64,000 nt of DNA, from contig NC_134026.1 in the NCBI RefSeq assembly GCF_964204645.1, positions 5,975,950-6,039,949 of the forward strand. The letters are read 5' to 3'. Position numbers and translations under genes: made by a program. Positions 1 through 54,577 of this stretch are shown here, piece after piece. The stretch's first letter is position 1. Each line of letters starts with the position of its first letter. The notes beneath the pieces were generated by a model. It had not been told where the DNA came from and searched no databases. It saw nothing but the letters and a program-made list of their open reading frames with translations. This stretch comes from Tubulanus polymorphus (taxonomy: Eukaryota > Animalia > Nemertea).

Positions 1-23230
<23,230 letters not shown>

Positions 23231-51327: not shown

Positions 51328-53693
51328 TCACAGTTTCGGATTTTTTATATCGGATTTTTCTTTCAGTTTTTTTAACCTTTCTCGAATCCAATCAACCTAG
51401 AATTAAAGACACATCGTATCAAGTTATTATATTTACATCAATTGCAGGTGATTAAACCAGTAGACCAGTATAACTAGTCCATTTGGCTATACAGCTTGTC
51501 ATAATGAGTAACACTGACAGGATCTTGTAGATCTTTCTATGGAAAACCAGTGGAACCCTCGACAGATACATAACAAGCGGCTACTCAGGGCAGTTAGCAT
51601 CAAGGTAATTCTTGCCAAACTTCTCAACGAACAACATGTCAAAGACAACAACTCATCAAACCTTCCACTAACCTCCACAACCTACCCCTCCCCATCCTTT
51701 ATTTCTCATAAAAATTCTCCCCGATTTTTTACAAATCATGGGTCGGTTGCTCAAAAGTTGGTTAAAGGAAACTGACGGATAAATACCACAGTAACAACGC
51801 TCTTTTAATTGTCACTGAATCAACTAACCACTGGTTAACTCTAACCAACTTTTGAGCAACTGGCTCCTGATATATCAAATTAGGTTAAAATAGATATTTG
51901 TATCTTCATAAATATTATGTCAGGGCTGTGTGCTGTTTAATCAGGATTAATTGATATAAAGTTATCGCACTAGCTGCTGATTATATGTTGTCTCTAAACT
52001 TACTGTTCTAAACCAGAAGCACCCGGGTTTATATTTCGCCGTCAGAACGAAAAATCGTTTGATACCGGACACCGGTGATAACACGTGTAGATGTAGGTGG
52101 TAAACGCTATTGAACGGAGCCCAGTGAAATCCGAACCTGAATACGATAAACACGAGAAAGAAGGATAACTCTAAGAGACTCACCGTAACGAACCAGAACG
52201 AATTCGGCCAGAACATAGCTCGACTGATTAGTCGCATTTCACTTTCGGGTGAAATGACATGGACGTGCAAATGATCGACCATACGAAACGGAGGCCAGTG
52301 GAACCCCAGCCTAAAAAAATATACAAATTAACAGTACGACCATTCTTGATATTGAAAATCAGATTGACCGAGAGTTTCGTGGTTCTGAGTTTTAATCTAA
52401 TTCAGGACTACCGAATTTGGGTCGAGTTTCATGAAAAAGTCGAAACTTAAATTCTTGGTTCATTGATAATTGCAATAGCTTACATCCATGATCTCAAATG
52501 AGCAGAGCTTAACCATTTTAAGCTTAAACTCTTTCATGACCCCAGAGACTATTCTACTTCCAGACAATTGGTGTCACCGCCTATTTCATGTAAAGTTTTC
52601 TGCAATGCATGGCCTTCTGGTCTGATACACGATGATCTTACAGCTTAACCCTTCGCAAACTGAATGAAATATCCCTTTTGTAAACGTTTTCTCTATTATG
52701 TTTTACAATTACCTGACGTCATTAACATTGCCGCCTTGTTCCTGGAGAACTTGTTTACCAGCAGTTACCAAATGTTCAACTGTAACAATGACAAGCACGC
52801 ACTTAGAAGGCAATCCAGGTTAGAGATGTACAGTCAAATACAGTTAATCTAGATCGGTTTAATCAGGATTCAAATCTAATCTGGACCCAGTTCCACAGTT
52901 CTGAGTTAAGATTTGACCCTGGGTTAACTCATTGAAAATGAACTAACTTTAACTCAGACTTAACTCTAACTCACAACTGTGGAACTGGGTCCTGGATATT
53001 ATTTACGATCCATTGTAAATTTATGTAAAATATGATGTTTTATCATGTATATTTATAAAGCCGATAAAATTCATTGGTACCAAATGATCTGAATTAAGTG
53101 AGTTCTACTATAGATTTATACAATGTATGTGTCGTTATTATCGTAACAAGCCCAGCAAACATCGTTTTATGAGATACAGACCTAAATCAATATGTTCGGG
53201 ACCCAATGAGTTGGCATCTCGTATGTGTTGTTTCGGAATGGATAAATAGTGATGAGGAGCTGCAGGTCTGTGATCCTTAAAAACAACTACATCATCATCC
53301 TAAAACATCAAACATCATATAAGTAGTAGAATGGGAAACCCGATAGGCCTACCTACAATCGTTTGTAAACTTTAGAAAAATTTACTTATAGAATGAAAAA
53401 TTATGACATGGTGTGGACTCTCTCTCTCTCTCTCTCTCTGGCTCTAGATACCATCGTCAGGTGTTACAAACAGTTAAAAATATCTCGATATTTCGTTATA
53501 TATTTGTTGATCAATAAAAATAATTTTGATTGGTTTTTAAGATTTTTACCTCGTACAGAATCGTAGTTTTGGGATCGTTATTTTGAGCAATCGCACAAAA
53601 TATGCATCCGGGTTTATAAATATTTCCCTGTTTTTCGTTTTCCTGCTCTGATTTATCAGCTCGATCGTAATCTTGGTGAGATTCTGATGCCAT
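51328..53693 (-). CDS. HINT3: Histidine triad nucleotide-binding protein 3; exons 53693-53550, 53299-53182, 52779-52713, [52310-52184 or 52136-52004], 51396-51328
   Basis: CIFC, FKDHRPAAPHHYLSIPK, and GFHWPPF...HLHVH are typical of HINT3. Phases are consistent with exactly one exon-4 variant. Confidence 0.93.
52884..52991. mobile_element. Harbinger-type MITE family C; related copies at about 17080-17176, 19585-19685, 39585-39657 and 42257-42545
   Basis: GACCCAGTTCCACAGTT...AACTGTGGAACTGGGTC flanked by CTG on both sides. Confidence 0.8.
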
Positions 53694-54223: not shown

Positions 54224-54577
54224 TCAAGCTGAAAGCTTTTTCTGTCCTGCGTCATAAACGATGGTCGGTGGTCTAGATTCGCGACGTCCATCTCGCCGGC
54301 AATAATAGTTACTACTTAATTTATGCGAAACGCCATCCGGCAGAATTGGAAGAGGTTGAGTCCTTTTCGCCATCGACTGCTCAAAACGTTGATGATCTTT
54401 CAGTGTTCTCTGAAAACCAAATTTGTACAATAAAGTATATTTAAATTGGAATTGAAAAAATGGCAAGCGTTTTCCATCGTTATTGCGTCCAAATACTCAA
54501 TTTACCTGATTCAGAAAGTTTCTTAATTTCATCATGAGCGGGGTGAGCTGCCTGGTTGCACCAGATGTCGATGCCAT
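54224..54577 (-). CDS. NDUFA7: NADH:ubiquinone oxidoreductase subunit A7 (B14.5a), 85 aa; coding exons 54577-54506 and 54409-54224
   Basis: [24 protein letters not shown]|[48 protein letters not shown] matches the family motif. Confidence 0.93.

Follow-up and report, generated by a model that had tools for sequence, protein, structure and literature searches.

Tandem histidine-triad exons, likely spliced one or the other, in the HINT3 gene of the nemertean Tubulanus polymorphus

The HINT3 gene and its surroundings

We analyzed a 64,000-nt stretch of DNA from the palaeonemertean Tubulanus polymorphus, here called the window, and give all positions relative to its first letter. Within it we confirmed a five-exon HINT3 gene on the minus strand, with two histidine-triad exons, 4a and 4b, in tandem. 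The coding part of exon 1 (53550..53693, minus strand, as are all HINT3 features below; 144 nt counted from the ATG) matches RefSeq isoforms X1 and X2 and is joined onward in a spliced contig from sequencing run X4 (joint 53298-53549). Exon 2 (53182..53299, 118 nt) encodes the N-terminal part of the HIT domain, and exon 3 (52713..52779, 67 nt) ends in phase 2; each is equal in length to its counterpart in L001, a locus on a eukaryotic contig from a metagenome scan. Exon 4a (52184..52310, 127 nt, 42 amino acids) is a HINT3 triad exon of canonical length with Met at position 120, and its product is RefSeq isoform X2 (XP_074640796.1). After a 47-nt spacer intron (52137..52183) comes exon 4b (52004..52136, 133 nt, 44 amino acids), a longer triad exon with Ser at position 120, whose product is RefSeq isoform X1 (XP_074640795.1) and which has counterparts in isoform X1 of Lineus longissimus and in L001. 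The coding part of exon 5 (51328..51396, 69 nt including the stop) supplies a C-terminal helix common to both isoforms.

The lengths, coordinates, and open frames that a first-pass annotation had given for the two triad exons, and the 47-nt gap between them, were all reproduced. Its phase-2 AG acceptors and phase-0 GTRAGT donors were likewise borne out, the donors being GTGAGT and GTAAGT. It had put the other introns at about 70 nt or more, which holds within the HINT3 gene, where they measure 250, 402, 402, and 607 or 787 nt. It had also read an intact HxHxH in both exons despite heavy divergence. Both are indeed diverged homologues with a complete triad: 21 residues are identical, and the alignment score of 115 was reached by 0 of 2,000 shuffles, whose maximum was 30. 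A six-frame pattern scan of the 64-kb window found two HxHxHx motifs, those of exons 4a and 4b, and each exon passes the Pfam DcpS_C cut-off of 24 bits on its own (28.2 and 24.9 bits, respectively). With its DcpS_C and HIT domains, HxHxH motif, and HIT fold, the gene resembles the HINT3 branch of the HIT superfamily (adenosine 5'-monophosphoramidase HINT3).

The neighbours look ordinary. Among 111 open reading frames scanned, Pfam recognized pieces of CAD-like, RMC1, MRPL55, Kazal, RAD51-like, WD40, and NDUFA7 genes. The HINT3 start is preceded on its own strand, at a distance of about 530 nt, by an exon of NDUFA7 (complex I B14.5a; 54227-54496, minus strand), which leaves little space for a HINT3 promoter. 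The MGS-like and ATCase-like pieces of the CAD-like gene flank a plus-strand open frame of 283 codons that has no Pfam match (17403-18251). Introns 2 and 4 each contain a short inverted-repeat element (52883-52992 and 51756-51860, respectively); the two are 77% alike over 35 nt, are matched by very many contigs, and are likely high-copy miniature transposons.

Splicing, reading frames, and possible routes to exclusion

Both products are already present in the automatic annotation. RefSeq isoforms X1 (exon 4b) and X2 (exon 4a), which are automatic models, equal our two predicted splice models letter for letter, and a protein search with 4b as the query returned one protein, XP_074640795.1, named HINT3-like isoform X1. 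Evidence on splicing came from the contigs of five sequencing runs (X1 to X5), of which X4 was taken as RNA because its contig is spliced. That contig, of 1,614 nt, has four GT-AG joints: 1 to 2, 2 to 3, 3 to 4a, and 4a to 5. The last of these (51394-52182) bridges 787 nt from 4a to exon 5, across 4b. Of the four junctions named in the first-pass annotation, 52713>52310 and 52184>51396 occur in one X4 contig, and 52713>52136 and 52004>51396 are absent from contigs, which drop rare variants. Matching contigs of runs X1, X2, and X3 were unspliced (that of X1 covers the stretch from end to end and may be where the window comes from, and those of X2 and X3 were pieces), X4 had no contig covering 4b, and X5 had no match at 90% or 80% likeness. 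The absence of a 3-to-4b junction from the contigs of all five runs is silent on the use of 4b, as contigs drop rare variants.

One explanation of these contigs, which we consider extremely unlikely, would be that only 4a is used in Tubulanus and that 4b is a rarely spliced relic made into an isoform by annotation, or else that spacer retention yields a protein with two triads. The single spliced contig does use 4a and skip 4b, as a relic would predict. However, the splice sites and frame of 4b are intact, its acceptor is as pyrimidine-rich as that of 4a (15 and 14 of 20 positions, respectively), and its comparison with the B-type exon of L001 gave a pN of 0.25 against a pS of 0.71. As for a two-triad protein, retention of the 47-nt spacer (52004-52310, minus strand) is in frame and stop-free, giving 234 amino acids with two triads and a hydrophobic linker. 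In L001, however, retention is out of frame (127 + 79 nt). The open spacer of Tubulanus is therefore probably due to chance, and we rejected spacer retention as a conserved isoform.

One-or-other splicing, the reading we prefer, agrees with the remaining frames. Exon 4a alone gives isoform A of 174 amino acids and exon 4b alone gives isoform B of 176, both open into exon 5. When both are skipped, the frame shifts and a stop falls at residue 117, leaving a product of 117 amino acids that lacks the triad. The earlier claim that double inclusion causes a frameshift was also correct: translation then reaches a stop at residue 161, which lies 103 nt upstream of the last junction. In L001, double inclusion meets a stop at nt 28 of the B exon, the same position as in Tubulanus 4b. 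Joint inclusion by splicing is thus a frameshift in both genes, and neither has a productive joint form by splicing. The proposal of mutually exclusive use gains support from the two RefSeq models, from the X4 contig that carries 4a past 4b, and from the retention of the pair in Lineus and L001.

In the part of the human atlas of mutually exclusive exons considered here (Hatje et al. 2017, PMC5740500), joint inclusion causes a frameshift in 60% of clusters, and a donor-to-branch distance of less than 50 nt, found in 9%, is taken as steric interference. In the Tubulanus spacer (52137..52183), a predicted branch-like motif is separated from the 4a donor by 18 nt and from the downstream 4b acceptor by 30 nt. 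The first of these distances is inside that range, and the whole spacer is 47 nt. The short spacer, with about 18 nt from donor to likely branch point, would therefore be predicted to block 4a-to-4b splicing sterically, and the frameshift and decay of any double-inclusion RNA, through a frame incompatibility common to Tubulanus and L001, would act as a backup. Exclusion had been described as enforced. The short spacer fits this idea in Tubulanus, but in L001 the spacer is 79 nt and its best branch-like motif, at 50 nt from the donor, borders on the steric limit, and one annotated Lineus isoform leaves out both exons. A search between exon 3 and exon 5 for docking-site/selector pairing found none, the only inverted 11-mers there belonging to a repeat element, and a comparison for docking elements found that the intron words common to Tubulanus and L001 are 8 nt or less.

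Counterparts in other organisms and the origin of the pair

Lineus longissimus (Pilidiophora), which we compared on proteins, has three isoforms with neighbouring accessions whose residues 1-101 are identical. Isoform X1 has a 44-amino-acid segment like 4b and X2 a 40-amino-acid segment like 4a; they share a tail and differ exactly over the exon-4 interval. Isoform X3 (P0022, XP_064626668.1; 104 amino acids) is without the triad, and its last three residues equal tail codons read out of frame, which makes skipping of both exons 4 likely. The stop of X3 would fall in the last exon, and its RNA could escape decay.

A metagenome scan covering 33 of 64 parts yielded 596 matching stretches, from which five loci were confirmed. 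One of the five (L001) has two triad exons; the other four have one each in the available DNA. The L001 gene is complete, with 118-nt and 67-nt exons followed by an A-type exon (127 nt), an intron of 79 nt that is the shortest of the gene, and a B-type exon (136 nt). Its splice sites are canonical, A precedes B, and the phases are those of Tubulanus. In a tree of the constant part, L001 was unplaced, and its highest identity was 59%, to Capitella. The pair is thus intact in L001 and has matching isoforms in Lineus, the opposite of the unconserved or disrupted second exon that would have spoken against the first-pass annotation. Furthermore, all six pairs of Tubulanus and L001 exons gave a pS of 0.71 to 1.09 (synonymous sites are saturated) against a pN of 0.25 to 0.42. 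At the codon level, these values show that both exons are under amino acid constraint.

B-type segments also occur in other proteins. The annelid Lamellibrachia satsuma has a protein with a 44-amino-acid B-type segment, and such segments were present in 2 of the 150 proteins listed and in 7 of 108 further proteins. Full-length proteins on contigs of 0.9 to 1.9 kb (P0038, P0184, P0185, and P0187-P0191) all carry one, and the records compared included no A-type partner sharing their N-terminus. Named molluscs, Capitella, Owenia, Priapulus, amphioxus, arthropods, and fish have the 39- to 43-amino-acid type, as judged by cluster representatives only. Across 257 one-motif proteins, the Tubulanus and Lineus pairs were the only ones whose N-terminal parts are identical while their exon-4 segments differ. 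The Tachypleus isoforms (seven further members) have the same triad segment and were rejected as an exon pair. The two-triad proteins P0051, P0183 (Anarhichas minor), and P0186 (Merluccius polli) were rejected as exon duplications because the whole domain is repeated. These fish records have two whole HINT3 domains in a row with differing post-triad segments, and they are likely tandem paralogues annotated as a single gene, which parallels the exon pair at the level of whole genes. The Lineus A, B, and skip-both isoforms, the tandem A and B exons of L001, and the annelid B-type segment are new findings of this work.

Next, we examined whether the pairs share one duplication. In a tree of the six exons of Tubulanus, Lineus, and L001, A was split from B by a branch (91/93) that was not starred. 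On this set, three independent duplications were rejected (p-AU of 0.009), and a nemertean duplication with a separate one in L001 was not (p-AU of 0.06). A and B profiles were trained without the six exons; the B profile gave the B exons 63 to 70 bits and the A exons 42 to 59 bits, but for L001 B the A profile gave the better score (70.5, against 63.1 with the B profile). A second tree, of 44 columns, used 58 exon-4 segments chosen manually from some 290 proteins. In it, a branch (93/85) set apart the 14 B-type rows and four shorter sequences of 42 to 43 amino acids, from two arachnids, Amoebidium, and one other; because these join the B side, B-like features can arise without this duplication. 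The starred group (95/84) held Lineus B, Lamellibrachia, and nine other 44-amino-acid segments. AU tests on the 58 segments did not reject pairing of A with B within species (p of 0.06 to 0.12).

These results could mean that exon 4 was duplicated more than once, for example, separately in nemerteans and the L001 lineage, with the B-like appearance being convergent. The AU values that leave such histories unrejected in both sets would fit, as would the arachnid and Amoebidium sequences near the B group and the occurrence of only the 42-amino-acid type in the named molluscs, Capitella, and Owenia among the records compared. Nevertheless, we consider repeated duplication very unlikely: exon order, phases, and a short spacer are the same in Tubulanus and L001, Tubulanus B is identical to L001 B at 28 of 44 positions versus 21 to its own A, and fully independent origins were rejected. 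Given the tree split, that rejection, and the constraint in all six pairs, it is likely that exon 4 was duplicated once, before Palaeonemertea and Pilidiophora diverged. An older spiralian origin, before the nemertean-annelid split, is possible. The split of the two nemertean classes is several hundred million years old. An old pair placed on the active site is more interesting than a species-specific duplication and less so than a new function would be; this one persists in both nemertean classes and in one or more further lineages. If its distribution were mapped, it may serve as a rare genomic character for spiralian relationships.

Differences around the active site and known exon pairs

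The exchange had been described as a swap of the catalytic triad itself. Because H123, H125, and H127 are the same in both forms, the triad chemistry is not exchanged; what does differ is the loop before it (residues 116-122) and a stretch of about 25 residues behind it, which aligns with the part of aprataxin that comes after the triad there. The HxHxHxx motif with hydrophobic x is present in both isoforms. Both forms model as HIT folds, with most of their differences lying after the triad, in a modelled helix and loop; the two models were built from alignments of 9 and 40 rows, and their pLDDT values (77.9 and 90.1) are not comparable. In Foldseek, form B matched HIT hydrolases, aprataxin, and HINT1. 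An Atlas structure match gave a TM score of 0.78 to a HINT3 cluster versus 0.64 to aprataxin, and named sequence matches were HINT3-like, placing the protein closest to HINT3 and not to HINT1/2 or aprataxin. A PDB sequence search with 4a alone gave 0 matches, and structure searches returned no HINT3-named entry.

In HINT1, Ser107 has an acid-base role in P-N cleavage. Position 120 is in register with this residue; the E-values are weak, and the register is fixed by the triad. In the three two-exon genes, position 120 is S, T, and S in the B exons and M, L, and W in the A exons, hydrophobic in 3 of 3. Across HINT3, 199 of 249 distinct motifs have S or T there and 50 have another residue; 2 of 13 B-type proteins are also without S/T. 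If the pair has one origin, the Ser/non-Ser contrast would be one event, which we offer as a lead. The part of the HINT1 inhibitor study considered here describes hydrogen bonds between Ser107 and inhibitor groups next to the nucleophile, His112 (bioRxiv 10.1101/2024.07.15.603568).

The first-pass annotation had also stated that the C-terminal region shapes HINT specificity. Such a link is described for HINT1-type enzymes in the portion of PMC6354057 considered here, and not for HINT3, so that a difference in specificity between A and B is something that we infer by analogy. Form B, with Ser/Thr at the Ser107 position, and form A, with a hydrophobic residue, would favour different leaving groups, and the two may prefer different substrates (adenylate or phosphoramidate leaving groups). 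Our guess, from HINT1 chemistry, would be that phosphoramidates are cleaved better by B and that A leans towards acyl-adenylates. Mammalian HINT3 hydrolyses both phosphoramidates and acyl-adenylates, and its physiological role is described as unclear in the available part of PMC6878047.

Alternatively, both exons could be kept and exclusive while their proteins are enzymatically near-equivalent. The persistence of the pair would then reflect regulation by tissue or stage, stability, oligomer state, or the binding of partners, and not substrate choice. We regard this as unlikely. The identical triad histidines would agree with it, as would the free variation of position 120 across HINT3, the location of most differences after the triad in the modelled helix and loop, and the enrichment of variable residues at protein surfaces in a survey of mutually exclusive exons (bioRxiv 10.1101/292813, in the part considered). 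The same part of that survey, however, finds those residues close to functional sites; moreover, distinct A and B signatures are kept in three genes, and the changed position 120 aligns with a ligand-contacting residue of HINT1.

Two forms that differ at the active site remain the reading we favour, and several known exon pairs resemble them. Like the human homologous mutually exclusive exons in the atlas text considered (PMC5740500), exons 4a and 4b are adjacent and similar, have like length and frame, and shift the frame when included jointly; unlike the cases there, the swapped HINT3 exon holds the whole catalytic motif. HINT3 has 0 occurrences in the main text of that atlas. Exons 4a and 4b of OGDH, in the part of PMC7969005 considered, likewise give two enzyme forms by exclusive exons, and there a branch point close to the upstream donor enforces exclusion, as is predicted here for HINT3. 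There, however, a calcium-sensing element is swapped, with distant branch points and a longer intron, whereas HINT3 has a 47-nt intron and its catalytic residues inside the exon. Exons of this exclusive kind usually modify surfaces close to functional sites; the swapped HINT3 exon contains the entire catalytic motif together with the loops on either side. In KHK-A/C, PKM1/2, and the reactive-loop exons of insect serpins, one gene uses alternative homologous exons to change substrate range, regulation, or target. Functional differences have been measured for these, and those of the HINT3 pair are predicted. Insect serpins are closest in logic, as the reactive element itself is swapped, but they are inhibitors with many exons. 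Among the papers that literature searches returned, none concerned HINT3 exon switching by title or start of abstract. The exon pair is thus real, old, and a case of a known, textbook kind of splicing mechanism, homologous mutually exclusive exons, that is apparently undescribed in HINT3.

Taken together, the gene anatomy, the incompatible frames, the splicing of 4a past 4b, the constraint, and the pair in two other organisms make it probable, in our judgment, that HINT3 has a tandem exon 4 pair, likely spliced one or the other and likely from a single old duplication, that gives two HIT hydrolases with differing active-site lining. The two forms would share their N-terminal half and differ in a loop and in the segment lining the active site, and the duplication would predate the split of Palaeonemertea and Pilidiophora and possibly that of nemerteans and annelids. 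More tentatively, and with clearly less confidence, we suggest an active-site switch of early spiralians, in which an exon duplicated once, persisted in nemerteans and annelid-like lineages, and was lost or is so far unannotated in molluscs, with Ser-bearing and Ser-lacking forms acting on different substrates. If such a switch existed, comparing A with B would be a natural experiment on what HINT3 acts on. Two natural variants on one scaffold also allow a clean test of the residues that set HINT3 substrate choice. One A-type segment stands apart, that of Lineus X2 (P0006), which has Ile instead of the nearly invariant His114, is two residues shorter, and lies on a long branch; its activity may be altered or reduced.
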